Source: an uncultured virus (IMG/VR IMGVR_UViG_3300006175_000006) (taxonomy: Duplodnaviria; Heunggongvirae; Uroviricota; Caudoviricetes). Taken from it: a stretch of DNA of 64,000 bases. The position numbers and the translations under genes were made by a program. Under the pieces are notes generated by a model that worked only from the letters and a program-made list of their open reading frames with translations, was not told where the DNA came from and did no database searches. Each line of letters starts with the position of its first letter. Within the stretch, counting starts at the first letter, position 1. Below are positions 6,001 through 53,848 of this stretch, in pieces. Location: positions 2,420 through 66,419 of IMG/VR virus record IMGVR_UViG_3300006175_000006, one strand, 5' to 3'.

Positions 6001-7821
6001 TCTGGGAGCCTCACCGCTCGCCGCACGCTCTCACGCAAGGCGCCATCTTTGGAAGCGCGCACGATGTTCGCGGCGGAAGGGGACCGTGGGACGGTCCGCA
6101 TTGTCACGGCGCCGGATTTTAAGGTGGGCGACACCTGGTACGAGAACGGCGAGCGCTTCCGGGTACGGCAAGCGACCACGCGCGAAATCGAAGAGAACAC
6201 CAATCTCCGCTATTTCAAAGACGGCCTGATCAACTCAATAGACAATGCGCTGCGGCTGCAAAGGGCCAAGCGCAATATCGACTATCTCGAGCGGCTGAAA
6301 GCGGACCCGGCCTTTTTCGATAACGCCGCGGGGCCGAACGCGCGCGATGTGCCGCGGAATTGGGTCACCACGAAACTTCCCCAACTGGCTGGCTGGCGCA
6401 TGGATCCCCGCATTGCGGCCATGGTCGACGACTTCTATCAGCCGGGCTTCGGGCTTCCCGAAATCCTGGGCCGCATCAATCACGCGCTGACCACCTCCAT
6501 CTTCATCAACCCCGTGTCCTCGTGGTTTGGTCACGGGTCGAACGTCGCGGCGCATTGGTTCGTCGGCCGTGGCTGGCAAAATTTCATGCCGCACACTTGG
6601 GGCCGCACGGCAACAAATCTCGTGCGCGCCGCTCGAGACGTGAACCGGCTCTCGCCGCAATATCTCCGGATGATGCGCGAAGGCTCGGCCCTGATGTATG
6701 CGCCAACGGTTGCCCGCGATTTCCACCAAACCATGATCAAAGCCATGGGCGGGGAAATGCAGAAGAACCCCGCAACCTGGGCCGAAATCGCCAAGCGTGC
6801 CGGCACCACTCCGCTCGCAATCCTCCGGGGACTGAACGATATCTCGAGCCGTGGCCTGTGGTATCTGAACGACGTTCTTATGCTCGGGCATGTTTACGAC
6901 CTCATGGACCGGGGCCGGACGGCTCGAGCGGCGATTGCAGAAGCGGAAGCCGATATCCCGAATTACCGCATCCCAACGGAAGCGTGGAATGGTCCGGGCG
7001 GCCGGGCGGTCTCACAAATCCTGCAGGATCCGAATTTCCTGATCTTCTCGCGCTACCGCTACGGGATGATGAAAGCCTATGCGAGCGTGCTTGGCAACAC
7101 GGTCAAGGGCACTGGCCCGGGGCGCGTCGAAGGGATCGGAAAGCTCGTGGCGCTGACGGCGCTCATTGCCATGATTTATCCGCTGGCGGACAAGGCGGTG
7201 CAGATGGCGACGGGCGATGATGATGCAAAGCTTCGTCGCGCTGGTCCGGCAAGTGTCGTCGACGCCATGGCGCAATACCGGGACGGCGAGGTGCCGTTGA
7301 CCGATGCCATCCACGGGCTCGTTTCGCCGGCGCCTGGCACCTCGGCAATCCTGCAGACGGCCGCGAACCAAAAGTCTTTCAACGGTAAGCACATTTACAA
7401 TCCCGAAGGGAGCCTGTGGAACGCGGCGAAGGATATCGGCGCTTTCTGGCTACAGCAGATGCCGCCGGTCCAGCAGGGGACCGAAATCGCCACTGGCGCG
7501 CGCACGCCGGGGCAGATCGGCGAACAGCAATTCGGGATCAAACCCGGCCCCGCCGGCGGACCTGCGCAAGCCTATTCGATACAGCTTCGCAAGGCGCACG
7601 CTGATCAACTTGAAGAACAGCTACCGCGGCTGCGCCGGCAATTCCAATCCGGCGATCGTGAGGGTGCTTTGCGCGAACTTGCGAAACTTGGAATTCCGCC
7701 GCACGAGCGGATGTTCTATGCACGCTCTTGGAGCAACCCAACGGGCGTGTTCAGAACACCGCGCTACGCGACACCTGAACAGGCTCAAAAGCTGCGGCAA
7801 TTACAAGGGGGCAGACAATGA
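1..7821 (+). CDS. Giant polyvalent/ejection protein, 5'-truncated by window edge (DdrB-like ParB domain, ADP-ribosyltransferase-like domain, three HExxH motifs, GHKL ATPase)
   Basis: Frame +1 is open from nt 1; motifs VESGNGRT (ParB-like), HELHE, FKRWFGDSKVVD..YHGT..GFFFT (ART-like), HEAIH, ELLQNSFDA..DNGAGM..GGFGVA (GHKL), HEAAH. Confidence 0.85.
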   Translation, partial: PLGNLRPGAPPRPTPSAAPPPEANAPGTVIPARPVAAAADDTAITSTGREVPVKYAVVEANSLTPSQTLAGGVNPNFPRELQPRDRSRLVSAAQIANIAQNLNPRLLDRSPTASDGAPIISPDGIVESGNGRTLAIQQAYAEGRDSAGAYRKYLADSGYPVEGMKNPVLVRIRQGTMAPDERQAFVREANQSGTAGYSATEQALADAAALPDSSLDLYRGGDIDAVGNQAFVRDFAARALTPAEYGKLVDTDGALSQDGIRRVQNALLAKAYGDPGIIAKVIESKDSEIKAIGGALLDSSAEWARLRADAKDGTIPPEMDQTPHIMAAVSMVDRARREGRPLSEYTNQRDLMTGQAVDPAVEGWLSLMFRDTDKWKGPVGRAKLNEAISNYVTKARKAPGLTMPGLAATQPADIVSLARRKLEKSYGKAGPGGTGEGIGEAGVPGAGQAAEGGEAAQGDQAARSRGGAGRGAVRFQREEREVPEPPLNPKTGKKITAEPLAGHLAILRQMAREGDVQGLRDAIDFHTEPGMPAHVKGEQSEVAAQYARDLLEHLGQPAGPPPMNRETIREANGLLPGPKPDPRKRLIEQVGPVRVYEVDGNTVRNRWFLDFTEGGNDHAYKEWFPKNEVWIDGSNKTELGPIILHELHERNLMRDEKMGYEDAHDRANVIEHYARNNPDELPKLLQKERDRLTAGEPKFATEPGAVDAKGNPLPQMVIPGAEASTRQLAAAREAEGRGKIQPRRAQEAPGGLFGEPPPKPKQGTLFERKQLQTPEFKRWFGDSKVVDEKGEPLRVYHGTATAPEAFDASRAGSSSTHPTAALGFFFTDNPDLAGQFADEIDTTDWPPKRLPQEGANLVPAYLSIKNPMRMTAEKWRDVVFRAGANGEPGFIGYGLEQVRRWRQKIEAAGFDGVHVIGDPKYRDSLSPEYGSDNWVAFRPEQIKSAVGNRGTFDPNDPRINYERKPGAATRMEGGALRRVIGDDTVAHLPTNPSPAEKAIIEEVSRIAQRIVPKAEVIPARNITVHGEAAKQNVAARVMGSTVLGPRRLIAWSLESKDPVGTMRHEAIHWLRDAGFFRPGEWRAMEHAARAGDWIGKHDIGKRYGDFDQDTQTEEAIAEHFNQWRRAPKSVPAFIRPIYEKLARLLGRVGDFLRRLFGADVSADDVFSRIEAGEIGSRGQYVPPRPGAVAKSGFGKRPSALMQRAQEQAGSTTETVGVGADLKRLIDLFGPKMYAGNMPNVTVKELLQNSFDAVKAALARGDIRPGEGVIHIDQNDANRTVRFTDNGAGMSPETVKDAFLTIAGTNKGDLTPEESSGGFGVAKLAFIFGNKSLHVDTVRDGVRTVLSTTGKELLDGKAKLVSHPTTLPNGTTVQVEFPETYKNQRGEEEHLWMPYNVANYDALGKPLLGDVEVRVSKNGREPTTLPIGRNSDMSETPKVTTAHFPWGDIDVYMKREEKDYPNHSVLSSGMYQFDSPINKKLLDFNRIPYRVIYDVRPKVKAADPMYPFNNQREGWSNKIKSDVVQLDSVMRRKFYADEAQNTGGTFSHNVVQMPLARGTYQPGQQVGATALNLAQHLPKAENFDIQPHLHIDSGKIRVGGESRDISKEAEAVANPKDFNFQPEQVPSDQPLLHSNLNVDVIAEAARRAGIEPAESMHFLASIGTVVQDFRDALAKLGEQYTSWGEPGHPVGVSLDRQYHGVHISVPYNGFFLNPLAVRTDTIGGHAASLMHTLLHEAAHTVAKNHSEDFTMALAKLEGDFEDTHPGLRVALQNRLRGIIEANEGAFDALREVYNDPATENIEARPGGIKGAVEQPGRTDGLLGRSFSLREEQQLGSEIRRGSGKRVSAGEAGRDTGRPLESVKFQRPTPPGQLPLNVPGAGDVFGWIRGQEDELFRMRQANEADKIEALKVLQSLPAAMKDPALRERLYERAENAITLPTAEEALFQQYVKPWIDRGTALYNSIRRSGYPVTSDGYVHRIVKGKGSMYDEPAGANATNPIYSGSLTARRTLSRKAPSLEARTMFAAEGDRGTVRIVTAPDFKVGDTWYENGERFRVRQATTREIEENTNLRYFKDGLINSIDNALRLQRAKRNIDYLERLKADPAFFDNAAGPNARDVPRNWVTTKLPQLAGWRMDPRIAAMVDDFYQPGFGLPEILGRINHALTTSIFINPVSSWFGHGSNVAAHWFVGRGWQNFMPHTWGRTATNLVRAARDVNRLSPQYLRMMREGSALMYAPTVARDFHQTMIKAMGGEMQKNPATWAEIAKRAGTTPLAILRGLNDISSRGLWYLNDVLMLGHVYDLMDRGRTARAAIAEAEADIPNYRIPTEAWNGPGGRAVSQILQDPNFLIFSRYRYGMMKAYASVLGNTVKGTGPGRVEGIGKLVALTALIAMIYPLADKAVQMATGDDDAKLRRAGPASVVDAMAQYRDGEVPLTDAIHGLVSPAPGTSAILQTAANQKSFNGKHIYNPEGSLWNAAKDIGAFWLQQMPPVQQGTEIATGARTPGQIGEQQFGIKPGPAGGPAQAYSIQLRKAHADQLEEQLPRLRRQFQSGDREGALRELAKLGIPPHERMFYARSWSNPTGVFRTPRYATPEQAQKLRQLQGGRQ

Positions 7822-34573: not shown

Positions 34574-36016
34574 CTAGTTCCCCGTCACCTTCTCGGCCGA
34601 AATCCAGTTACAGGCGATGTTGCAGCGCGCGGTCACCTCCTGCGGCTTCCCGTGACGGGCCTTCGCCACGTCCAGAAAGATCTTGTTCTGTGCCCTCAGC
34701 ATGTCGGTCTCCCATTTGACGTACTCTTCGTCGCCTTTCGCCTTGGCCTCGTGCTCCTGGCGCGACAGGTAATATTCCGGCCGGTTCAACAGGATCGCGG
34801 TATCAGCCTCTTCCTCGATCGAACCGGAATTGCGCAGATCCGAAAGGTATGGCCGATTGTCCGCGCGGTCCTCGGATTTGCGGTTCAACTGGCACAGACA
34901 GACGATGGGCAACCCAAGCTGTCCGGCGAGGTCCTTCATGCCCCGCGCCGTGTCGGTCGCCTCGGCATGGAGATTGCCGCGGTAGTTCTGATCGGCGCGC
35001 ACCCGCTGCAGATGATCGACGATGATAAGCCCCAACCGCACGCCTCCCCGGGCAAGCTTCGCCTGCAGCCGCCGGGCACGGGAGGAAAGTTGGGTGAGGG
35101 TCTGTCCGCGCCGGTCGTCGATGTAGAGCGGCATCCGGGCCGCCTCAACCGCCTCGTTCGCGAGCTTGTCCGCCCAATTATCCGCAACCTGCCCGTGGCG
35201 AAGGGCGGAATAGGGTAGCTCCAAACCGGTGGCGAACATTCGGGCCGATAACCACCGTTCGGAAACCTGGTCGCGCGTCATTTCCAGCGAGTCGAAGTAA
35301 ACCCCAAAGCCCTGATCTGCCGCCCGGTCGGCCATCGCAATGGCAACCGCGGTCTTGCCCATGCCGGTGCGCCCGGCAAGCACGATGAGGTCGCCCGCGC
35401 CCATGCCGCCATATAGGTCGTCCAGCCCGGCGACGCCAAAAGGAACCATGGCCTTTGACCGGTCGGAGCGGTTGAGGCGGTTCACGGTCTCGCTCGCCGA
35501 AACCGTAATCGGCTGCGGGTCGTCGTCCCTGGGCGTGCCCTCGAGAATTCCCGTGAGGTTCTTTTGGGCCGTTTCGATTATTTCGGTTGTAGGCGCCTCT
35601 TCGCTCCCGCGCCGTGCGGCCGCTTCAATTTCGGCGCCGTACCGGGCGAGCGCCCGCCTTTGGTCCAGGTCCGCAACAATCTCAATCAATCGCCCGATCA
35701 CCCCGGCGGAATTGGGGGCGGACAGCGCAATGGATTTGAGATAGGCCCCAACTTCCAATTCGGCATTGGCCGGGTCGCTTTTCATGGCAACCGCGATCGT
35801 GAGCGGAGAAGCGATTTCGCCCCGCGCCTTGGCCGACAGCATCGCGGAGAAGATCCGCTCGTGCAGGGGATCGTTGAATTGGTCGGGGCGGAGTGTTTCG
35901 CCCGCGACGTCAAGCAGAGTGGGATTTGTCAAGCAGGCGCCCAAAACCGCCTGTTCAACATCAACCCAGGAATCTGACTCGGAGAGAGTCGGATTTTGCG
36001 CCGCGACCCGCTTCAC
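34574..36016 (-). CDS. dnaB: Replicative DNA helicase
   Basis: EQAVLGA, LAGRTGMGKT, SLEM, IIVDHLQ, QLNR, DLRNSGSIEEEAD, KARHG; likely GTG start at 36016. Confidence 0.93.
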   Translation of the reverse strand: MKRVAAQNPTLSESDSWVDVEQAVLGACLTNPTLLDVAGETLRPDQFNDPLHERIFSAMLSAKARGEIASPLTIAVAMKSDPANAELEVGAYLKSIALSAPNSAGVIGRLIEIVADLDQRRALARYGAEIEAAARRGSEEAPTTEIIETAQKNLTGILEGTPRDDDPQPITVSASETVNRLNRSDRSKAMVPFGVAGLDDLYGGMGAGDLIVLAGRTGMGKTAVAIAMADRAADQGFGVYFDSLEMTRDQVSERWLSARMFATGLELPYSALRHGQVADNWADKLANEAVEAARMPLYIDDRRGQTLTQLSSRARRLQAKLARGGVRLGLIIVDHLQRVRADQNYRGNLHAEATDTARGMKDLAGQLGLPIVCLCQLNRKSEDRADNRPYLSDLRNSGSIEEEADTAILLNRPEYYLSRQEHEAKAKGDEEYVKWETDMLRAQNKIFLDVAKARHGKPQEVTARCNIACNWISAEKVTGN

Positions 36017-37038
36017 GCTGCTTCGTTGCCCCAATGGTCCCATCCCGCATATTTCTCGCCGCGTGCAAAAAGCTCGATGGAGGGCAACGTCGGGAACATT
36101 TCCTCAATCATTTCGCGGAAGGCGAAAGGCTTTGCGCTGTGCTCTCCGACCTTCCCCTGATACACCGATGAATATTGCTCGCCCGGCGCCGGCGCGGGGA
36201 CATTGCCTTTGGTGCCGATCAACAGCAGTTCGTGTTGGCCCCGGACCCAATAACCGGTGCCGATCCTGTCCTTCACCCAGACAAAGTGAGATTTGTAAGA
36301 AAATCCCCACGCCTGCATCACTTCAAAAGCCTGCGGCAGCATGGGAATTGTCGCCCAAAGGAACAGCACGCAATCATCGGCGGCCGGAACCTCGATGGCT
36401 TTAATGCCTTCCAGATCCATCGTCGGGTAGTGATTTTCCGGCGCCCGGTCCATGCCGCTCACACGCGAATAAGGCTCAAAGCGCCAAGGCGGGTCAGCGT
36501 AAATGACGCCAAACTTCTTGCCTGGCATTGCCAACAGTTTTTCGCCTAATTCGCGCTCGCGACTGTCGCGCTTTTCTTTCTTGTCGCCCTGTGTCAGCAG
36601 CGTCGCAACCGCGCGCGGTGTGGCGTCCTTGCCGTCAGACCGCAATTTTTCCGCGGCCTCCTTGACCGCTTCAACCCCCTTGTCGGCGAGCTTTTTCAGC
36701 CGCGAGCGCGACGTGTGTTCAATCCCCGTTGCTTCGCGCCCACCATTCGATTTGCGCCGCTTGGCGCTTTTCGATTTCTGGTCACCGCCGGTCGCCTTCG
36801 GGATCTTCTCGAGTTCTTGACCAATGCGGATGCTGGCGACGAGGATTGTGTCCTCGCACTTGGCCTTCACCTCATGGACGTGATTGAGCAAAACTTTGAG
36901 CGCGGAAGCCTCTTTGATGATCCGGCGAATTTGGGCGTAGGTCTCCGCCGCCGCCAATTCACGCTCCATCAAATCGAGCGCCTTCAATGCCTGTGGTACG
37001 CTCGGGACCTGTTTGCGGACTTCTAAGTCGAGTGTCAT
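36013..37038 (-). CDS. MT-A70 family adenine methyltransferase with N-terminal extension
   Basis: IYADPPW, HYPTM, LFLWAT, HSAKP, IELFAR, WGNE. Confidence 0.9.
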   Translation of the reverse strand: MTLDLEVRKQVPSVPQALKALDLMERELAAAETYAQIRRIIKEASALKVLLNHVHEVKAKCEDTILVASIRIGQELEKIPKATGGDQKSKSAKRRKSNGGREATGIEHTSRSRLKKLADKGVEAVKEAAEKLRSDGKDATPRAVATLLTQGDKKEKRDSRERELGEKLLAMPGKKFGVIYADPPWRFEPYSRVSGMDRAPENHYPTMDLEGIKAIEVPAADDCVLFLWATIPMLPQAFEVMQAWGFSYKSHFVWVKDRIGTGYWVRGQHELLLIGTKGNVPAPAPGEQYSSVYQGKVGEHSAKPFAFREMIEEMFPTLPSIELFARGEKYAGWDHWGNEAA

Positions 37039-37439
37039 GCGAAAATGCCTTTCAGAATTTCCCGGAGTGGAAGCACAATGTTGTCGAACTCGCCGCCGTC
37101 GCCGCCGCCGCGTTTGGCGTGCTTGCGGTAGGCAAGGCGGCATAATTCCTTGAGTCGCTCGGTCGGAAACATCAGGTAGACAAGCGTCTGATCGTCGCGC
37201 CGTAGCTCGTGAACCCAGACGTCAGCTTCGGTTATGGCGATACCGGACGGCTTCCCGCGTTGGCGAAACTCAATGCAGATATTTCCCGTGCGCTCCCAAA
37301 GCCATGTTTCGGTTTTAAGCTCGAGTTTTTCGATGCGCAGATTGGCGAAAATCTCGGCGAGTCGGCGCTCATGGATAACCGATTGACTTAGCTGCAGATC
37401 AAATTTTGGGCCGCGATTGAAGGCGACGCCGTTGGTCAT
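37035..37439 (-). CDS. PD-(D/E)xK-like phage nuclease-fold protein
   Basis: ELKTE..TGNICIE..KPSGIAITEADVW. Confidence 0.6.
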   Translation of the reverse strand: MTNGVAFNRGPKFDLQLSQSVIHERRLAEIFANLRIEKLELKTETWLWERTGNICIEFRQRGKPSGIAITEADVWVHELRRDDQTLVYLMFPTERLKELCRLAYRKHAKRGGGDGGEFDNIVLPLREILKGIFA

Positions 37440-37620
37440 GCGGTCTCTCCGTGTCTCTCTCCGGAAGGGCGCAAAGTTGGACCTGCAAATTTGCCGGCGC
37501 AATTCCGTGGACGGAATATTCCTGTGAACGTGCTTGTGGGCTGAAAACTTCGACCCGCTAGATTTTGCGCCTGACGCGTGCTAGTCCTTGGCGGTCTGGA
37601 AGGGGCTTCCCGATTCCGCC

Positions 37621-37821
37621 ATGCCAAGCGTTTCGAGAAAGGAACACAACCTTATGGCAGCGGTCGGCCACAACGCGGCTTTCGCGCGTGAGGTCGGCAT
37701 ACCCCAAAAGGTTGGAATGGATTTCTACAACGCGGACGTAAAGGCGGGAAAGTTCAAGCCCAAAACCCAACGGTCCGTTCCGAACCACCATTTCGCGCAC
37801 GGCCGCCCACGAACCGACTAG
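37621..37821 (+). CDS. Small basic late protein ending PNHHFAHGRPRTD
   Basis: MPSVSRKEHNLMAAVGHN..VGIPQKVG type of small protein seen before terminase genes. Confidence 0.75.
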   Translation: MPSVSRKEHNLMAAVGHNAAFAREVGIPQKVGMDFYNADVKAGKFKPKTQRSVPNHHFAHGRPRTD

Positions 37822-37831
37822 GAGCAAATCA

Positions 37832-38125
37832 ATGGCGAAGGCTGGATATCCCGAAGGCGGCGTGAGCCCGCGCAAGGCAATGGCGATGGGCAAGGCCGGC
37901 GAAGGCGGCAATTTCGGCGTCAAATCATTCGAAAGCATGAACGGTCACATGGGCTCGCACCCCGATCACACCGCCCATACCGGAATGAAGGGCGCGGTTG
38001 GTGACGGCGAGCGCGCAATGGGCCCGGGGATCCATCACACCCGCGGTCATCATCCGGCCCAAGCGGCGCCCAATCACGGCCCGCACCACGTCAATGGCTA
38101 CGGCGACCATCACGGCAAAAGGTAA
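37832..38125 (+). CDS. His/Gly-rich low-complexity late protein
   Basis: AGGAG SD; His-rich C-half with HPDH and PNH motifs. Confidence 0.7.
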   Translation: MAKAGYPEGGVSPRKAMAMGKAGEGGNFGVKSFESMNGHMGSHPDHTAHTGMKGAVGDGERAMGPGIHHTRGHHPAQAAPNHGPHHVNGYGDHHGKR

Positions 38126-38391
38126 TGGTTGCGCGTACACCTAGCGGGTCGGTGAAAGCATCGGCCCGCCGCGCGGCAAAGGCGAAGGGTCATACCCTGC
38201 CTGGTACCGACAAATTCCCAATCAACAATCTCGGGGACCTGTCGAACGCCAAGCATCGGATTGGCACCACCTCTGAGCCGCACGCCAAGGTTGTCGCGTA
38301 TATCAACCGGCGCGCGAAAGCGCTTGGGGGCAAACCGGTTGGTGGTCACCCGGACCATCATTTTGCCCACGGGCGGCCGCGCACAGATTAG
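38125..38391 (+). CDS. Small basic late protein ending PDHHFAHGRPRTD
   Basis: TAATG overlap; KFPI..DLSNA..YINRRAKALG. Confidence 0.75.
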   Translation: MVARTPSGSVKASARRAAKAKGHTLPGTDKFPINNLGDLSNAKHRIGTTSEPHAKVVAYINRRAKALGGKPVGGHPDHHFAHGRPRTD

Positions 38392-38523
38392 CGAAGCCAA
38401 GGGGACGCCATCAGCGGCCGCGCGCCCGGCCGAGCAAACCAAGCTGCTGTCGAGGGGTTCCCTTGGACATGATGCACTTGAACCTGTAACGGCGGTGGGC
38501 GATTTCAACTTTGAGGGGGTTCA

Positions 38524-39081
38524 ATGGCGCGCCGCAATGTTCCTTCCACGGCCCGCAACAAGAAGAAAGCAATCGCGCGGAAGAAGATCGACCCGCGCAC
38601 GCTGATCGAGCGCGTCACATGGCTGGTGAGCCACGGGATGAGTGATCCCGAAGTGGCGTGGATGCTCCGAATTGGCATCCACACCATGTACGAATACAAG
38701 CGGATCTGCCCCGATTTCGCCCGCGCCTTCAAAATCGGCGAAAAGACCAAAGCCAAAAACGTCGAAGGCAAGCTGTATCAGCGCGCGATGGGCTATTCGC
38801 ACCCGGCGGTGAAAATCATGAAGGCCGGGGGCAGGATCGTCCAGGTGCCCTATGAAGAATTCCTGCCGCCGGACGTCGAAGCACAGAAAGCCTTTCTCAA
38901 AGGCAACATGCCGCATAAGTATCGGGAGAAGGTCGAACACGGGGGCGACCCATCAAATCCGGTGAGGTTCATCATTGAAGGCGTGACCCCGGTTATAGAA
39001 AGCGAGAACAGAAGTGAGCCCAGAAGAATCGAGCAAAGAGAAGTCACGGATGCCGAGCTTATCGAACCCGACGTGCGGTAA
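38524..39081 (+). CDS. Terminase small subunit
   Basis: HTH-like N-part, VEGKLYQRAMGYSH..PPDVEA..LK; upstream of TerL. Confidence 0.8.
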   Translation: MARRNVPSTARNKKKAIARKKIDPRTLIERVTWLVSHGMSDPEVAWMLRIGIHTMYEYKRICPDFARAFKIGEKTKAKNVEGKLYQRAMGYSHPAVKIMKAGGRIVQVPYEEFLPPDVEAQKAFLKGNMPHKYREKVEHGGDPSNPVRFIIEGVTPVIESENRSEPRRIEQREVTDAELIEPDVR

Positions 39082-39770: not shown

Positions 39771-41255
39771 GTGGAAATCCGCTTTTCCTATAACTGCGTC
39801 CCGACGCTTCGCCAGTTTGCCGAGTCCAATGCGTTCTTGCGCGCCATTGTGGGCCCCATCGGTGGCGGCAAATCCTCTGCATCGGTAATCGAATTCCCGC
39901 GCCGGGCGATGGCGCAAAAGCCGGGGAAGGACGGGATCCGGCGAACCCGGTGGGTTGTGATCCGCAACACCTTCCCTGAATTGCGCGACACCACCATCCG
40001 GACGTTTCATCAATGGTTGCCGCCCGAGCACTTCGGCCGCTGGTACGCGCAAGACCATCGCTATGTGGTCAAAGCCTTCAAGGGCTGCGAATTCGAAGTC
40101 CTCTTCCGCGCGCTGGACAAGCCCGACGATATCAAAAAGTTGCTGTCGCTGGATATCACCGGCGGCTGGATCAATGAGGTGCGGGAAATTCCCTGGGCGA
40201 TTGTCGACGCGCTCCAAGGCCGCTGCGGTCGTTACCCCGCGCAAAGCGATGGCGGCCCGACATGGTTCGGGCTCTGGATGGATACCAACCCGCCGGACAC
40301 CGATTCGACCTTTTACAAATTCTTTGAGGACGGCGTTTGGCAAAGGAGCTTTGAGGAATTGCGGCAGTCCGGGATGTTTGAAGCCGGCGCCCAAGCGTCC
40401 GATTTCGCGGCAATCTTTCATCAACCATCCGGCCTGTCGGCGGACGCTGAAAACGTGCCGAACCTGCCGCCGGGATATTATCCGCGCCTCTGTGTCGGCA
40501 AGTCGAAAGAGTGGATCAAAGTCTATGTCGGCGGTGAGTACGGTTTCGTTTCCGACGATCGCCGGGTCTACACCGAATATTCCGACGAAGCGCATTTGCG
40601 GGACAATATCGAGCCGATCAAAGGGCTCCCGATTTACCGCGGGTGGGATTTCGGACTAACCCCGGCGTGCTCGTTCTCGCAAGTCCTTCCGGATGGCCGC
40701 TGGCTGATTTTCGACGAAATGATTTCTGAGGAAATGGGGATCGACCGCTTCTCCGATGAGGTGCTTACGCATTGCTCCCGGTCGTTCAAAGGCGAGGCCG
40801 AATTCGAAGATTACGGGGATCCGGCGGGAAGCGAGCGGGCCGAAACCGACGAAAAGACCTGCTTCGATATCTGTCAGGCGAAGGGGATCGCCATGCAGCC
40901 CGGGCTTCAATCGGTCGCCATCCGGCTCGAATCGGTGCGTAAGCCGTTGCGCACGCTGATCAATGGCAAGCCCCAAATGGTGCTGCACAAGCGCTGCAAA
41001 ACGCTCCGCAAGGCGATGCTCGGGGGGTACCACTTCAAACGGCTCATGACCAAAGCCGAGCGCTACACCACAAAACCCGACAAAAACCATCCGTATTCGG
41101 ACATTATGAACTGCGTGGAATACACGGGCACTATTCTTTTCGGCGGCGGCTTGACGCAATCGGATCAACGTGATGATTTCGAGTCGATCGCTGGTCGCGC
41201 TGCAGAACGGGACTTCGACTCAGGGGTGGGAAGATCCAAAGTCACGGGGTACTGA
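39771..41255 (+). CDS. Terminase large subunit
   Basis: Walker A VGPIGGGKS, WINE, DTNPPD, RGWDFGLTPAC, GDPAG. Confidence 0.93.
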   Translation: MEIRFSYNCVPTLRQFAESNAFLRAIVGPIGGGKSSASVIEFPRRAMAQKPGKDGIRRTRWVVIRNTFPELRDTTIRTFHQWLPPEHFGRWYAQDHRYVVKAFKGCEFEVLFRALDKPDDIKKLLSLDITGGWINEVREIPWAIVDALQGRCGRYPAQSDGGPTWFGLWMDTNPPDTDSTFYKFFEDGVWQRSFEELRQSGMFEAGAQASDFAAIFHQPSGLSADAENVPNLPPGYYPRLCVGKSKEWIKVYVGGEYGFVSDDRRVYTEYSDEAHLRDNIEPIKGLPIYRGWDFGLTPACSFSQVLPDGRWLIFDEMISEEMGIDRFSDEVLTHCSRSFKGEAEFEDYGDPAGSERAETDEKTCFDICQAKGIAMQPGLQSVAIRLESVRKPLRTLINGKPQMVLHKRCKTLRKAMLGGYHFKRLMTKAERYTTKPDKNHPYSDIMNCVEYTGTILFGGGLTQSDQRDDFESIAGRAAERDFDSGVGRSKVTGY

Positions 41256-42770: not shown

Positions 42771-45137
42771 TTGCGCGTAAATCTCGCCGGCGCTGCTCGG
42801 GGGGATTGCCGCTTGGCTCTCGTAGAATCGTCTCTTCCGGTGCTCTCACGCCCCGGCGACACTGACACGCTGATCGAACCCGACGAAGATGGGGACGGGC
42901 TGGAAGAACAGCGCCCGTTCAAAGCTGAGCCGCCGGCGGACGTCAAAAAGCAGCTTGTCGACTGGATCGACAATCATAACATCGCCCGCGACGTCGACCC
43001 CCGGCTTCTGGGCGAACTCGGGATGCTGGTCGTCCGGGAATTCGATATCGACGACAACACCCGTGGCGAGTGGAAACAGGAAGCCGAAGAGGCGCTGAAA
43101 TTCGCGACCCAAGTGGCGACGGAAAAGCAATATCCGTGGCCGAAAGCCTCCAACATCATCTATCCGCTGATTACCCGCGCCGCGATTGAATTCGCGGCCA
43201 TGACGTACCCCGCCATCGTCCGGGGGCGGAACATCGTCCGTGGCATGGTTTGGGGCGGCGATGATGGCACGCCGGCAACACAGGATGGCGACCCGAACTC
43301 GGCGCCGATCTTGGGTCCGGACAATCAACCGGTTTGGCTTGTTGCGCCGGGCGCCAAGCAAATCCGCGCCGATAAGGTCGGCGAGCATATGTCCTGGCAG
43401 TTGCTCGACGAAATGGAATATTGGGAGTGGCAGACCGATACGCTCCTGCATCAACTTCCGATCGTCGGCGGCGCGGTGCGCAAAACCTACCGCAATTTCG
43501 TCAAAGACCGGAACGAATCGGTACTCGTTTCGCTGATGAACATTGTCTGGAATAAAAACGCGAAGTCCTTTGCAGAGGCGCCGCGCCACTCCGAACTCTT
43601 CACCCTGCAGCCCTATGAAATCGAGGAGCGCGAACGCGACGATGAAAATTTCCTGACCATTCAGTACGGGGTTGGCGGCACGGTTGATGATCCCGGCGAG
43701 CCCGGGGACAGCAGCAATCCACAGGAATATATCGAACAGCATCGGCGCTATGATCTGGACGGCGACGGCTATCCCGAGCCCCTGATTGTCACCGTTCACC
43801 GCCAAAGTTCGAAGGTCGTCCGCATCGTCGCCCGCTATGAGGCAATCGGGATTATCGACCGGGACGGGGAAATTCTCCGCATTGAGCCTGTCGACCACTA
43901 CACGCTTTACCCGTTTTTTCCCGATCCCCGCGGCGGTTCCTATCCCATCGGCTTCGGCCATCTGCTCAAGCCGCTGAATGAAGCCATCAACACATCGATG
44001 AACCAAATGTTTGATGCGGGCCATCTGCAGATCGCCGGCGGCGGCTTTGTCGGCACCTCGCTTTCGCTGCACGCGGGACCGGTCAATTTCCGGCTCGGGG
44101 AGTACAAACCGGTCAACACCAAAGGCGGCAATATCCGGGACTCGGTTATGCCGCTCCCCTTCCCGGGCCCCAATCAGGTGCTATTCGAACTGCTCGGCTT
44201 CTTGACCAAAGCGGCCGAACAGATCGCGGCAACCCAGAACATCATTTCAGCCGACGCGGCCGGGCTCGCAAACATTCAGCCCACGACGCTTGTGCTTCTT
44301 ATCAGCCAAGGGATGCGGACCTACACCGCCATCCATCAACGCATTTATCGCTCGCTGAAATCGGAATTCGCCAAGCTGTTCCGCTTGAACAGGCTGTTCC
44401 TGCAGCGGGACCAACGCTACCGGATTGGCGACACCTGGCGCGTGGTGAAGCCAGAGGATTACCGCTTGGGCGGCGGCGTGGAACCGGTTTCGGACCCGCG
44501 CGAAGTGACCGACATGCAACGCTTGGGGCGGGCCATCGCGATTAAGGAATTCGCGAACGACCCGCTTTGCAATCCCATGGAGGTGCGCCGGCGCTATTTC
44601 GAAGCCCTGCAAATCGAGCGGATCGACAAGCTCTTGGTCCAGCAGCCGCCGGGACCCTCACCAGATCAACAGGCCGAAACTGCCCTCACCATGGCGAATA
44701 TCGGCCGTGCCCGGGCGGCGGAATTGAAGGATCAAAGTCAGGCGGTCCTCAACATGGCGCTGGCGCGCGCCAAAGCTTCCGGCCCGGAAATGGACTGGAT
44801 CGACAAGCAGCTTGAAGTTATGCGGATGCACATTGAGGCGCTGAATACGACGGTGAAGGCGGCCGACGTCGATGCCAAGGTTCACGGCCACAACATGCAC
44901 TTAAAGGCAACCCAGGAAAGAGCAAGACAGGTCTCGAATGAACGACCAAGCCCAGAACCCCCAAGCCCAGGACCCGCCCCCATCGCACCCCAACCCGCTG
45001 GTAGCGGTCCTCTCGCAAGTAGCCTACCAACAGTGGCGCCACCATCCGGTAACGCAAATGGTTCTGCGCTACCTGTTCCACCGGGCGGAGGACTACCGGG
45101 CGGCGGCCCTGGCCCTGTGGGAATCGGGGGAACTTGA
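42771..45137 (+). CDS. Portal protein
   Basis: PWPKASNIIYPLI, HMSWQL, DLDGDGYPEPLIVT, NQMFDAG; between TerL and scaffold; start uncertain. Confidence 0.9.
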   Translation: MRVNLAGAARGDCRLALVESSLPVLSRPGDTDTLIEPDEDGDGLEEQRPFKAEPPADVKKQLVDWIDNHNIARDVDPRLLGELGMLVVREFDIDDNTRGEWKQEAEEALKFATQVATEKQYPWPKASNIIYPLITRAAIEFAAMTYPAIVRGRNIVRGMVWGGDDGTPATQDGDPNSAPILGPDNQPVWLVAPGAKQIRADKVGEHMSWQLLDEMEYWEWQTDTLLHQLPIVGGAVRKTYRNFVKDRNESVLVSLMNIVWNKNAKSFAEAPRHSELFTLQPYEIEERERDDENFLTIQYGVGGTVDDPGEPGDSSNPQEYIEQHRRYDLDGDGYPEPLIVTVHRQSSKVVRIVARYEAIGIIDRDGEILRIEPVDHYTLYPFFPDPRGGSYPIGFGHLLKPLNEAINTSMNQMFDAGHLQIAGGGFVGTSLSLHAGPVNFRLGEYKPVNTKGGNIRDSVMPLPFPGPNQVLFELLGFLTKAAEQIAATQNIISADAAGLANIQPTTLVLLISQGMRTYTAIHQRIYRSLKSEFAKLFRLNRLFLQRDQRYRIGDTWRVVKPEDYRLGGGVEPVSDPREVTDMQRLGRAIAIKEFANDPLCNPMEVRRRYFEALQIERIDKLLVQQPPGPSPDQQAETALTMANIGRARAAELKDQSQAVLNMALARAKASGPEMDWIDKQLEVMRMHIEALNTTVKAADVDAKVHGHNMHLKATQERARQVSNERPSPEPPSPGPAPIAPQPAGSGPLASSLPTVAPPSGNANGSALPVPPGGGLPGGGPGPVGIGGT

Positions 45138-45309: not shown

Positions 45310-45718
45310 GCTTAACGCTGAATATATCCCGGCCCAATGGCACGGGAAGGACACCTCGGGAATTCGCTGCGTCGGGGTCTATGTTCTGGTGCTGATGGAT
45401 ACCGTCTCGGAACAGACCGCCGGCGGCGCGTATCTCACCCTCGATCATCAAGAACGCCTGCAAATGGGCGCCGAAAGCGGCGTTCTCGTCGCGGTTGGCG
45501 GAAGCGCCTTCCGCCTGAACGATGATGGTAGCCAGTGGTCGGGCGTCAAGCCTGTGCCGGGCGACCATATTCAGGTCGAACGCTATGCGGGCTCACAGGT
45601 CCGCGGCCGGGACGGGCTGGTTTACCGGCTCATGACCTACGGCAACGTGGGCGCGGTTTACGAGCCCATTCCGAGCGATGAACAACCGGAACAGCAAGCG
45701 GGGAACAGCAATGGCTAG
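45263..45718 (+). CDS. GroES-like co-chaperonin
   Basis: VLV..EQTAGGAYL..GVLVAVG..PGDHIQVERYAG..YRLM. Confidence 0.8.
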   Translation: MAEAQRAPTAPKPVSRLNAEYIPAQWHGKDTSGIRCVGVYVLVLMDTVSEQTAGGAYLTLDHQERLQMGAESGVLVAVGGSAFRLNDDGSQWSGVKPVPGDHIQVERYAGSQVRGRDGLVYRLMTYGNVGAVYEPIPSDEQPEQQAGNSNG

Positions 45719-46757
45719 GGGTGCAGTTGTTGAATCGAGCCTCCCGGGAAGCGACCCAGAGGACGATCCGGAAATTGATCCACAGGAAATTGAGCGGCAA
45801 ACTCGCGAGGTTGAGGAACCGCCCGAAGAGGACGATTCTGCGGCACTGGAAGCGGAAGCTCGCCGGCAGGGCTGGCGTCCAATTTCAGAGTACCGCGGAG
45901 ACCCGAAGGACTTTGTGGGTGCGCGCGAATTCCTCGAGCGCGGGCGCGACTTCGTGCCCTTCATCCGCAAAGACCTCAAAGAGTGGAAAGACAAGGCGGC
46001 CAATCTTGAGTCGCAAGTCGTCCAGTTGCGCAATGAAATGTCGGAAATGACACAGCTTGCCCGTGACCTGCGCGACGCGAATGTAAAGGCCGAACAGCGC
46101 GGTTACGACCGCGCCATGGCCGAACTAAAAGACCGCCAGCGGCAGGCAGTCGTTGATGGCAATGTTGAACAATACGACGCGGCCGAAGCTGAAATGGCGC
46201 GCCTGGAACGGCCCAATGGGCAAGCCCCGGCGCGTCGTCCGGCCGTATCGGATGCGCCTCCGCCCAACGACCCGCCTCCGCCGCCTCCGCCGAACAATCA
46301 GCAGGTCGATCCGGTTGCGGCGCAATGGGTGAAGGAAAACCCGTGGTTCCAGACAGATCCGGTTTTGGCGGCACAAATGAACGCCGAGCATGTATCGCTC
46401 AAGGCGACTGCCCCGGGTCTCTCGCTCGCCGAAAATCTCCGTCTCGCAAAGGAAGCCGTGGTGGCGCGCTATCCGGAAAAATTCGGCGTACAGCCGCGCA
46501 ATCGCCAGCGTCCGCGCATGGGGGTTGAGGAACCATCCGGCGGCGGCGGCGGCGGTTCGCGTGAGCGCGCCAATGGGATCAACACGATCACCGACCCTGC
46601 CGAACGGGCCGAAGCGCGGCGCGAATTCGAGCGGCAAAAACTATCCATGCCGGGCTACACCGAGGCCCAATTCATGAAGCTTTATAACAATCCGCGTGCG
46701 GACGTTCTGGCCGACATGCAGCAGAAGCGGCGTAGGGAGCGCAACAATGTCCAATAA
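45711..46757 (+). CDS. Capsid scaffolding protein
   Basis: EARRQGWRP..FVGAREFL, coiled coil, WVKENPWF; position before capsid. Confidence 0.75.
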   Translation: MARGAVVESSLPGSDPEDDPEIDPQEIERQTREVEEPPEEDDSAALEAEARRQGWRPISEYRGDPKDFVGAREFLERGRDFVPFIRKDLKEWKDKAANLESQVVQLRNEMSEMTQLARDLRDANVKAEQRGYDRAMAELKDRQRQAVVDGNVEQYDAAEAEMARLERPNGQAPARRPAVSDAPPPNDPPPPPPPNNQQVDPVAAQWVKENPWFQTDPVLAAQMNAEHVSLKATAPGLSLAENLRLAKEAVVARYPEKFGVQPRNRQRPRMGVEEPSGGGGGGSRERANGINTITDPAERAEARREFERQKLSMPGYTEAQFMKLYNNPRADVLADMQQKRRRERNNVQ

Positions 46758-47349: not shown

Positions 47350-47444
47350 CCAGCCCAAGCCCAACCAAGAATAGCCGAGCAAAGACCTCGTAACTGCGGA
47401 CTTACCGTCCGCGCGGTTGACGCAACGCTTTTTTGGAGACGGCA

Positions 47445-48053
47445 ATGGCAAATGCAAACTCCCCCTTTGGTCTGCGCCCCATCAGCAACAATGGGACGAT
47501 GTGGAGCGGCCAAGGCCGTCTGTATTGCTTCCCGGCCGCGGACGCTTCGAACATCTTTTTGGGCGACCCGATTGTTGCCCTTGGCACCTCTGACGCGAAC
47601 GGCGTTCCAAACGCCACGATCGCGAGTGCCGGTTCCTCAAATTACATCAACGGTGTTTTCGTTGGCCTGACCAACGGCCCGGGCAACAATGCCGGCGGCG
47701 CGGCTTTCACGGTCACCCGCGACCTGCCCGTTTACGTCCAGTCCGGCATCCTCGCCTACGGCCTCGTCTGCGACGATCCCAACGTCTTGTACGTCACCCA
47801 GGAAGACTCGGTTGGCGGTGCCATCGCGATTACCTCATCCACCTTTGAGGACGCGAACATGGTCGCCGGCTCGGGATCCACGACAACCGGCTTCTCAGGC
47901 TGGATGCTGGACTCCTCCACTGTCGGCAACGGCGCAAATCTGCAGGTCAAAATCCTCGGCCTGGCGCGTGGTCCGGACAATGTAATCGGCAACTACGCGA
48001 AGTGGGTCGTCCGCTTCAACCTCGCCGGTCTGTGGAAATCCACGGGCATCTAA
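47445..48053 (+). CDS. Head decoration / minor capsid protein
   Basis: MANANSPFGLRP..IFLGD..GVFVG..DDPN; just before MCP. Confidence 0.7.
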   Translation: MANANSPFGLRPISNNGTMWSGQGRLYCFPAADASNIFLGDPIVALGTSDANGVPNATIASAGSSNYINGVFVGLTNGPGNNAGGAAFTVTRDLPVYVQSGILAYGLVCDDPNVLYVTQEDSVGGAIAITSSTFEDANMVAGSGSTTTGFSGWMLDSSTVGNGANLQVKILGLARGPDNVIGNYAKWVVRFNLAGLWKSTGI

Positions 48054-48089: not shown

Positions 48090-49010
48090 ATGGCAACGGT
48101 TGGCGGCGTTATCACTACTGGCGCACACCCCAAAGCACTCTGGCCTGGAATCAAGACCTGGTGGGGCCGGCAATATGCCGAGCACGAACAGGAATATCCC
48201 GAACTCTTCGACATGGAGACCTCCGACAAGGCTTACGAAGAGGACGTGGAAATCTCCGGCTTCGGGCTGTTGCGTGAGAAGGATCAGGGGCAGGCGGTCA
48301 CTTACGACACGGAAGTTCAGGGCGCCGTCACCCGTTACACCCATGTCCCGTATGCCGGCGGCTATATTGTCACCTATGAAGAGTTGCGCGACGACCTTTA
48401 CGAAGTGGTCTCAAAGCGCCGCTCCACGATGCTTGCCTTTGCTGGCCGCCAAACCGAAGAAGTGATCGCCGCCAATATCTTCAATCAGGCGTTCAACACC
48501 GCCTATCCGATTGGCGACGGCGCGGCCTTCATTTCGGCCTCGCATCCGACGCTCACCGGTAATCAGTCCAATCTTCTCTCGACCTCCGCGGACCTGTCGG
48601 AACTGGCGATTGAAGATCTGGGCGTTCAGATCATGCAGGCGACCGACTATCGCGGAAACAAGGTCAGCCTCATTCCGCAATGCCTCGTGATTTCGCCGAC
48701 TCAGTGGTACGACGCCAACCGCATCGTCCATTCGATCCTGCAGAACGATACGGCGAACAACGCCATCAACGTCATCAAGGCGTCGGGCATGTTCTCCAAG
48801 GGGATCGAAGTAAACCACTATTTCCTGTCGGCGACGGCATGGTTCATCCGCACCAACACGCCCTATGGCGCGCGCTTCCTGTGGCGCGACAAGCCGACCT
48901 TCGACACCGACAATGAATTCGACACGAAGAACGCAAAGGCCGTTCAGTACATGCGGTTTTCGTGCGGCGTTACCGACTGGCGCGGCTATTTCGGCACGCC
49001 GGGCGCGTAA
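48090..49010 (+). CDS. Major capsid protein
   Basis: KALWPG, SDKAYEE, DDLY, TEEVIAAN, GDG..SASHP, AWFIRT, RFS.G.TDWRGYFGTPGA; AAGGAG SD. Confidence 0.9.
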   Translation: MATVGGVITTGAHPKALWPGIKTWWGRQYAEHEQEYPELFDMETSDKAYEEDVEISGFGLLREKDQGQAVTYDTEVQGAVTRYTHVPYAGGYIVTYEELRDDLYEVVSKRRSTMLAFAGRQTEEVIAANIFNQAFNTAYPIGDGAAFISASHPTLTGNQSNLLSTSADLSELAIEDLGVQIMQATDYRGNKVSLIPQCLVISPTQWYDANRIVHSILQNDTANNAINVIKASGMFSKGIEVNHYFLSATAWFIRTNTPYGARFLWRDKPTFDTDNEFDTKNAKAVQYMRFSCGVTDWRGYFGTPGA

Positions 49011-53044: not shown

Positions 53045-53848
53045 ATGAGCAAGGCTCCATCCGACCTGACGGGACTGCGGTTTGGGATGCTCGTCGCACT
53101 GTCCGATGCTGGACCTGGCAATGGAGGATGCCGGAACTGGCTCTGCCAATGCGATTGCGGAAATCGTAAACCTGTAAATCGTCATTCCCTGATTCGTGGC
53201 AACACGAGGTCCTGCGGCTGCATGAAAAAAGGGCCGCCCCGCACACTTCCACGAGCAAAATCGGAGTCGTTGCCGTTCCCTGAACACTTATGCTGCATCA
53301 AGGGCTGCGATGAAGAGGCCAGCGGCCACAATTTCTGCCGCCGCCATTATCAGGCTTGGCGAAACCATGGGCATCCGCTTGCTAGGATGAGAAGGCGTGG
53401 TCGCAATGGGCCACAGACAGCAAAATCGTCCACGAAGGAATATCGAGCATGGTGCGGCATGAAGGAGCGCTGTTCGCGCCCGGAATCTCGCGCCTATCCG
53501 ATTTACGGTGGGCGCGGCATTACCGTTTGCGAACGGTGGACGGATAGTTTTGAGGCGTTTCTTTCTGACCTCGGCCGCGCGCCATCCCGGCTTCACACGC
53601 TTGAGCGCGTTGACGTAAACGGCAACTACGAGCCATCCAATGTGCGATGGGCGACAGTGACGGAGCAAAATCGGAATACCCGCAGCGTGCGCTTAAATAT
53701 TGAGTTGGTCAGCGCCGCCAAAAGAAAGTTCGAAAGCGGCGTTGCGGTCGCGCAAATCGCGAGGGAAATGCGAATCAATAAATCTACAATCTGGCAGGCC
53801 ATCCACGGCAAAACGTGGAAGGAGATTCAACCCGTGAGTGTGTCCTAG
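53045..53848 (+). CDS. HNH-type homing endonuclease in the structural operon
   Basis: GLRFGML..WLCQCDCG..SCGC..YGGRGITVCERW..GNYEPSNVRWAT. Confidence 0.8.
   Translation: MSKAPSDLTGLRFGMLVALSDAGPGNGGCRNWLCQCDCGNRKPVNRHSLIRGNTRSCGCMKKGPPRTLPRAKSESLPFPEHLCCIKGCDEEASGHNFCRRHYQAWRNHGHPLARMRRRGRNGPQTAKSSTKEYRAWCGMKERCSRPESRAYPIYGGRGITVCERWTDSFEAFLSDLGRAPSRLHTLERVDVNGNYEPSNVRWATVTEQNRNTRSVRLNIELVSAAKRKFESGVAVAQIAREMRINKSTIWQAIHGKTWKEIQPVSVS

Follow-up and report, generated by a model that had tools for sequence, protein, structure and literature searches.

A C-terminal tail shared by unrelated small proteins of an uncultured tailed phage, a putative docking motif

Introduction

The capsid-targeting sequences (CTS) of phage T4 are N-terminal and are cut off by the prohead protease. 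In the HK97 maturation protease and in P22-type scaffolding proteins, C-terminal segments dock to the inner capsid surface, and the cargo peptides of encapsulins have a hydrophobic consensus. We describe here an 11-residue C-terminal peptide, HHFAHGRPRTD (the tail), on two otherwise dissimilar small proteins, A and C, of an uncultured tailed phage (IMG/VR record IMGVR_UViG_3300006175_000006). The stretch of DNA analyzed, hereafter the window, is 64,000 nucleotides long (positions 2,420 to 66,419 of that record) and covers the greater part of one 66,419-bp virus contig, whose G+C content is 59.6%. The genes for A and C flank a third small gene, B, and together they form a cassette upstream of the terminase genes (Table 1). 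Encapsulins are described in one account as encapsulating their cargo via 'targeting peptides' (PMC10960027).

Our comparison of the window with related phages demonstrates that the tail is portable, strictly C-terminal, strongly selected, and co-varying between protein families within genomes. We propose below what it may do, weigh this proposal against other explanations, and set the tail beside the described systems.

Results

Two proteins of one genome end in the same peptide

Proteins A and C both terminate in HHFAHGRPRTD followed by a stop codon. Scanned in all six frames, the complete 66,419-bp genome contains the peptide exactly twice, each time directly before a stop, and the proline two residues upstream of the tail is also common to both proteins. 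Nine of the 11 tail codons differ between the two copies, every difference being synonymous. Under the codon usage of the phage, full synonymous saturation would be expected to leave 4.72 of 11 codons identical, and the observed count is 2 (P(k<=2)=0.08), so the tail DNA is saturated and not significantly over-diverged. Selection for extra nucleotide divergence, as a means of avoiding recombination between the repeats, is unsupported by the same value.

Elsewhere the two proteins have nothing detectable in common. With the tails removed, BLASTP yields no alignment of A and C at E<=100, and when the family profiles are compared with each other only 8 tail columns align. The tail identity is real and far beyond chance. 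An initial annotation of the window had reported the shared peptide with its synonymous codon differences, the dissimilarity of the remaining sequence, and selection on the peptide rather than on the DNA. All three observations stand: the genome holds only these two copies, the similarity is confined to the tail, and synonymous differences are saturated, with third positions randomized among all carriers of the motif as set out below.

The tail is a portable C-terminal motif in related phages

We searched for the tail in 2,505 six-frame open reading frames (ORFs) from loci L001-L049 plus the window region. The core [HDQ]x-F-[AG]-[HF]-x-[RKHQ]-P has 14 distinct occurrences in this set; all 14 end 2-3 residues before the C-terminus and none is internal. 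The stricter core H-H-F-A-H-x-[RK]-P is carried by at least six unrelated small proteins of related soil phages, and the carriers other than A and C are listed in Table 1. The portable C-terminal tag put forward in the initial annotation is borne out by these occurrences on unrelated proteins, and the check that it had suggested, a survey of small ORFs in related phages for common tags, gives a positive answer both for this tail and for other tail types matched between A and C.

Across 11 carriers from 8 loci, just 14-21 of the 24 nucleotides in the eight core codons are identical in every pairing, whether orthologous or paralogous. Third positions are thus randomized, and recent gene conversion is excluded as the source of the tail identity.

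Conservation differs between the two families. Among the 39 homologues of C found at E<=0.01, HHFAH.[RK]P is kept strictly in 13 and loosely in 21, and the linker from domain to motif is Gly-rich, ~4 to 20 residues long, and variable in both length and sequence. In the A family the tail is kept in 2 of 13 homologues (P0040, and P0041 at 63% identity). The residues after the core vary among C tails (TD, T, A, TS, SG, TE, VV); G-R-P occurs in 8 of the 21 that bear the motif, the rest reading KRP, RRP, GKP, QRP, GQP, or KKP. HEFAH stands in place of HHFAH solely in the L001 / P0017 tail. The F, A, P, and R of the tail are conserved as strictly as its His residues.

One further A tail, encoded at L006 381-572, reads ..KFAHAGSAGRRRTAFEQPRT. 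It resembles a His-type tail broken by ~13 residues and could be a decayed or frameshifted copy.

Tail types change in step between A and C

Four tail types are found in A and C: HHFAH.., EKKK.M.D[IL]YK (L044), KSRAS[RK]LY (L045), and K.KADRRYGKR (L037) (Table 1). The three sister types (KADRRYGKR, KSRAS+LY, and EKKK.M.D[IL]YK) contain no His or Cys, occupy the same position, and are shared between A and C in the same way. Each tail type is basic and includes one aromatic residue. In L029, the identity between the A and C tails is four residues longer than in the window. In L002, a His-rich protein and C have GEKRGG.V.G..T..R.DRRAR in common. The residues that A and C share in genomes with other tail types are, as in the window, encoded by different codons.

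Over the seven genomes in which both A and C occur, the within-genome A/C tail scores sum to 314 against a permutation mean of 185, a value reached by 2 of 5,040 permutations. When one genome per tail type is retained (the window phage, L044, L045, and L022), 1 of 24 permutations reaches the score, and that permutation is the observed arrangement. Four of the seven A/C pairs exceed all 2,000 shuffles; those that do not are L022 (99/2,000), L006 (106/2,000), and L001 (388/2,000). We take this co-variation as strong evidence for a relation between the two tails, though not as independent evidence, the loci being few and related.

Protein B accompanies the His-type tail

Protein B, encoded between A and C, belongs to a conserved family with 41 close homologues and 134 cluster representatives at E<=0.001 among 1.84 billion. 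Its consensus is MSPRKAMA..GNFG..HPDH.AHTG..D.ER..P.IHHT+GHHPAQAAP.HGPHH, with SPRK.MA, GNFG, D.ER, and PAQA.P.HGPH invariant; distant homologues are not His-rich. The initial annotation had seen degenerate echoes of the tail in B. The letters are indeed there, but they are the conserved B-family motifs HPDH.AHTG and PAQAAP.HGPH. Predicted alone, B has no confident fold (predicted local distance difference test score, pLDDT, 57.9; predicted template modeling score, pTM, 0.18).

Nine distinct loci combine a His-type tail with 1.2 kb or more of sequence upstream, and all nine encode B. So does L024, where the C tail reads ..AAHHHGAHAHHP; ~22 other distinct C or A loci lack B. Searching in the opposite direction, from B, places a tail within 3 kb in 8 of 12 distinct loci, and the four loci lacking one include the two most divergent B copies. 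L005, P0100, and P0103 have a direct fusion of the A domain to B, at the position where the A protein of the window carries its tail, and some half of the B homologues bear a different small domain, phrog_2423, at the N-terminus in a similar fusion. Fusion of the A domain to B at the tail position is what one would expect if the tail replaces such a fusion by non-covalent binding. On these comparisons, B is the leading candidate for a partner or an obligate co-cargo of the tails. Complex prediction of B with C gave a score of 0.00 in both runs, which weighs neither for nor against binding.

The A and C domains

Protein A consists of an N-terminal helical domain (MPS.S..Q..LM..V.H...FA..VG.PQ.VG.DF..AD), a short basic linker, and the tail. 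It matches phrog_16759 (E 1.5e-18, residues 1-52 against profile positions 1-52 of 58), and its domain also forms the first ~50 residues of the 'virion structural protein' families phrog_22033 and phrog_25121. The domain is widespread: viral contigs yield at least 590 confirmed hits, and it occurs in 128 annotated phage records.

Pfam holds no match for A, B, or C, and PHROGs none for B or C; tblastn of B and C against 50,697 phage records also returned no match. In a language-model atlas, DUF3008 is a weak lead for A (rank 9, score 0.89), and C lies beside DUF6582 clusters at 0.94, again as a lead only. None of 15 A-family members reaches the gathering score of DUF3008 (PF11450) and none of 39 C-family members that of DUF6582 (PF20223), against which the C2 protein of L005 scores 19.7 bits, below the cut-off of 27.3.

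Protein C is predicted to comprise a three-helix domain (residues ~1-67, with helices at 12-20, 36-48, and 53-67; overall pLDDT 80.6), followed by a Gly-rich linker and the tail (residues 68-88), which are modeled without secondary structure (pLDDT ~62). A Foldseek search of the PDB with the domain gives no match at E<=0.001, and VIA-align over 48,161 chains reaches a best Z of just 3.8, so that no solved structure among them is alike. A library of predicted viral structures places the C domain inside larger phage proteins, one of them named prohead protease, with no function attached. L025 (2423-3514) and also L026 encode an N-terminal fusion of the C domain to an XkdF-type phage protease of the Peptidase_S78_2 family (Pfam E 3e-10).

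The C domain is also found within proteins of 750-1,053 amino acids (aa) encoded on 38-157-kb contigs (L012 950-4087, L015 800-3613, L016 557-3718, and L041 2252-4504). These contain Pro/Met/Gly-rich spacers and C-x-x-C...H-C-H-N-C-G motifs and have no family match. Repeated [KR]-A-[KR]-G-G motifs lie upstream of or around the C domain in L017 (2135-2716), L021 (1616-3223), P0030, and P0035, where they could be cleavage or binding sites.

The cassette lies among head genes

The cassette adjoins the gene for the small terminase (TerS) in the window, L029, L006, and L033. In L001 its place is after the major capsid gene (71% identical to that of the window phage), and in L001 and L028 it precedes a tail-fibre-like gene. 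The suggestion in the initial annotation that the cassette is expressed first in the late operon fits some genomes, but not L001 and L028 with these later positions. Aquatic phages carry the cassette between capsid-like and downstream structural genes. In Stenotrophomonas phage BUCT555, a gene for a 687-aa protein comes after the large terminase gene, and a 52-aa A gene lies between it and the capsid gene. GAP32_317 and CBB_322 both begin with the A domain, and the latter is entered in a virion mass-spectrometry table for jumbo phage CBB with 30 peptides and 43.57% coverage (PMC5259590). Gene context points to the virion.

We considered mimicry of the scaffold, in view of the ..NPRAD.. near the end of the scaffold-like protein and the ..RPRTD of the tail. 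This candidate was rejected: the scaffold homologues of G002 and G004 read PHAD and PAID there, yet both phages keep the tail.

Aquatic relatives carry a different C-terminal module

We kept 80 aquatic A-domain loci out of at least 600 hits. In these phages (~60 kb), a module ..KKGG..S[AS]RADG[CI]A.KGKTKG.M[VI] ends the A protein and neighboring small proteins that are not of the A family. At least one carrier is present in 61 of the 80 loci and at least two in 34 (two in 22, three in 8, and four in 4). Sixty-six of the 111 carriers do not have the A-domain start motif, and one is a DUF6321 protein. The module corresponds to no family in Pfam or PHROGs. What emerges as general is a single C-terminal module borne by several unrelated small proteins within the cassette.

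Up to four unrelated module-bearing proteins are encoded side by side in L052-L131 (e.g., L091 1696-3259, L054 1384-2791, and L123 1584-2802), and K-K-G-G repeats often precede the module and a C-terminal Cys often follows it. Two extremely His-rich small proteins, both unrelated to B, occupy the same cassette position: one in L060 (2955-3200), 81 aa long and made up almost entirely of H, E, and K, and one in L002 (2606-2989).

Layout of the window

The cassette opens the rightward block of head genes, across a divergent intergenic region from leftward replication genes (Table 1). A scan of 37000-39000 for promoters and terminators finds nothing above shuffled background. In the leftward block, the helicase and methylase genes overlap by 31 nucleotides, and the methylase has an N-terminal extension of ~200 aa that lacks a Pfam match. 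The 206-aa protein encoded just upstream of the capsid gene also lies beside the capsid gene in G002 and G004 and is possibly a second shell or decoration protein. An HNH endonuclease gene lies within the tail/structural gene block. Near the left end of the window is a giant ORF with a match to phrog_5143 over its first ~300 residues (E 3e-70) and with further matches to other function-unknown PHROGs, which comprise very large phage proteins.

Table 1. Coordinates of the cassette, its neighbors in the window, and tails and carriers in related phages
Feature	Genome	Position	Strand	Description
Giant ORF	Window	151-7821	+	2,556 aa
DnaB-like helicase gene	Window	34574-36043	-	Leftward block
MT-A70 methylase gene	Window	36013-37143	-	Leftward block
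Divergent intergenic region	Window	~37503-37620		Between leftward replication genes and rightward block
Gene A	Window	37621-37821	+	66 aa from ATG; opens rightward block; A homologues begin M-P-S
Tail copy 1	Window	37786-37818	+	11 codons for HHFAHGRPRTD, C-terminus of A
Gene B	Window	37832-38125	+	97 aa, His-rich, conserved; AGGAG 9 nucleotides upstream
Gene C	Window	38125-38391	+	88 aa; start ATG overlaps TAA stop of B
Tail copy 2	Window	38356-38388	+	11 codons for HHFAHGRPRTD, C-terminus of C
Small terminase (TerS) gene	Window	38524-39081	+	Downstream of A-B-C
Large terminase gene	Window	39771-41255	+	Rightward block
Portal gene	Window	42771-45137	+	Rightward block
Coiled-coil scaffold-like protein gene	Window	45678-46757	+	Rightward block
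206-aa protein	Window	47433-48053	+	phrog_37556, E 2.5e-6; just upstream of capsid gene
Major capsid protein gene	Window	48090-49010	+	Rightward block
HNH endonuclease	Window	53045-53848	+	phrog_374, E 5e-58
Carrier C2	L005	3310-3543		77 aa, phrog_16160; identical 11-mer
Carrier D	L009/L033	1933-2217		94 aa, acidic; relatives in L147, L148
Carrier, 84-aa protein	L032	2029-2283		
Carrier, 67-aa protein	L138	4570-4773		
A and C tails	L029			A RVPDHHFAH.RPRT; C RVPDHHFAH.RPRT
A and C tails	L044			A ..EKKKRMTDIYKK; C ..EKKKTMKDLYK
A and C tails	L045 (=L027)			A ..KSRASRLYKAKGIARG; C ..KSRASKLYRPKTVGRD
A and C tails	L037			A ..KEKADRRYGKR..; C ..KSKADRRYGKRN

Discussion

We propose that HHFAHGRPRTD is a tethered C-terminal docking motif for a common, phage-lineage-specific partner, most likely serving procapsid or virion loading; our confidence in this proposal is about evenly balanced. 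The tail would be a short linear motif at the free end of a flexible linker, displayed on unrelated small proteins of the head and packaging cassette, and would bind these carriers to one common partner specific to the phage lineage. B may be that partner or an obligate co-cargo. Docking would bring the carriers into the procapsid or virion, by analogy with an encapsulin cargo-loading peptide or as a mirror image of the N-terminal T4 CTS. We infer the binding of tail to partner, the identity of the partner, and the packaging outcome alike.

Several points weigh against this proposal. Some carriers do without the tag: the A tail is degenerate in L001 (..KAHGREKHGRR) and L006 (..FAHAG..QPRT), and the motif is missing from 18 of the 39 C homologues, although some of these lie on short contigs. 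Relatedness of the loci confounds the co-occurrence of B with the tail, and common descent can yield the same pattern. The aquatic module lacks genome-specific matching (61.7 within the same locus vs 60.6 with other loci; 5,033 of 20,000 permutations), and, with the module equal in all loci, genome-specific tails hold only between clades. The C-terminus of the scaffold-like protein of the window phage is not tail-like, its sole resemblance, the four residues PRAD, being unconserved. Finally, the roles could be reversed, with the tail-bearing domains as the docking parts and the tail as the working part.

A broader model, which we offer tentatively and consider doubtful in its full form, would treat the tail as a modular C-terminal 'postcode'. 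Each lineage would use a tail of 8-20 residues to recruit interchangeable proteins (A, C, DUF6321, and others) to a lineage-specific receptor; in the His lineage the receptor would be B, acting as a disordered and probably metal-ordered hub that carries proteins into the capsid. If true, these phages would have their own version of encapsulin cargo loading, equipped with a dedicated adaptor.

The conspicuous histidines raise the possibility that the tail is instead a metal-binding module, in which the H-H-x-x-H cluster and the His-rich B bind Zn, Ni, or Cu and the carriers either need the metal or are bridged by it. The three core His residues are spaced at i, i+1, and i+4 (L001 has H-E-F-A-H), and B, with its invariant His, accompanies the His-type tail in every one of the nine testable loci and is found with the ..AAHHHGAHAHHP tail in L024. 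Extreme His-rich proteins in other cassettes (L002 and L060) fit the same idea, and a protein such as B, conserved yet predicted not to fold alone, may be one that is ordered by a ligand. We nevertheless consider this explanation unlikely. The sister-phage tails occupy the same position and are shared between A and C in the same way without any His or Cys, distant B homologues are not His-rich, and the strictness of F, A, P, and R, equal to that of His, suggests a protein interface. Nor do we read the tail as the HExxH site of a zincin metalloprotease: HEFAH occurs only in L001 / P0017, and there within an unstructured 11-mer.

Binding to nucleic acid would account for the charge of the tails. 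An AT-hook-like tail could allow small basic proteins to travel on the packaged DNA or to condense it, and all tail types are basic with one aromatic residue, on carriers that are small, basic, and encoded in the head gene cluster. AT-hooks, however, have an invariant G-R-P core with basic flanks, and G-R-P is confined to 8 of the 21 motif-bearing C tails. Charge alone, moreover, requires neither an invariant F-A-H, nor placement 2-3 residues from the C-terminus, nor matching of tails within a genome, and carrier D is acidic. We regard this explanation as quite improbable, even with the precedent of the T4 internal proteins, which a published account describes as embedded in packaged DNA (PMC3012670).

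The strict C-terminal placement of the tail, and tails that differ between lineages and could thereby track different hosts, would also suit a signal read by the host: a degron recognized by an AAA+ or tail-specific protease, for example, or a chaperone motif, either of which would time turnover or folding. The terminal 2-3 residues of the tail vary, however, which sets it apart from degrons anchored by the carboxylate. The tight co-occurrence and the fusions with phage protein B point to a phage partner, and we hold a host-factor signal to be very unlikely. A maturation signal recognized or removed by a prohead protease, as with T4-type propeptides, would suit the head-gene setting and the C-domain fusion to an XkdF-type protease in L025, but the tail has no evident cleavage motif and a PHROGs scan of 26 late ORFs of the phage recognizes no prohead protease, which makes this explanation extremely improbable.

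The docking proposal, if true, would give a role to widespread families of unknown function, namely the A domain, the C domain, B, and DUF6321. It would identify accessory proteins that these phages carry into the cell, and it would provide short natural peptides with which foreign proteins could be loaded into phage heads. If the tail binds metal or DNA instead, it would still be an unusually clean short linear motif that stayed constant while every synonymous site turned over.

To our knowledge, a C-terminal tag that is common to several accessory proteins and changes in step in unrelated proteins from lineage to lineage is apparently undescribed for tailed phages. A limited literature search on capsid targeting sequence, bacteriophage, and C-terminal gave, among the papers listed, mostly work on T4 or jumbo phages and no description of such a C-terminal tag. 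A similarly limited search on DUF6582 and DUF3008 found nothing, and a paper on polyvalent proteins, searched by term, mentions neither lysine-rich or histidine-rich regions nor C-terminal tails (PMC5512222).

Among described systems, the tail resembles the cargo-loading peptides of encapsulins in being C-terminal, behind a flexible linker, and on unrelated proteins, and its carriers, like encapsulin cargo, are encoded near the gene for an HK97-fold shell. Unlike encapsulins, it belongs to a tailed phage, is basic and rich in His, Arg, and Pro where the encapsulin consensus is hydrophobic, changes type between related phages, and has a small protein of its own, B, as companion. With the T4 CTS, found on IPI-III and Alt, it has in common that one tag is borne by unrelated small proteins encoded near head genes. 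It departs from the CTS in lying at the C-terminus in 14 of 14 occurrences and in having no prohead protease recognized among the 26 late ORFs scanned. The C-terminal segments of the HK97 protease and of P22-type scaffolds each belong to one essential protein, whereas this tail is common to several small accessory proteins, and the scaffold-like protein of the window phage, unlike P22-type scaffolds, has no such tail.
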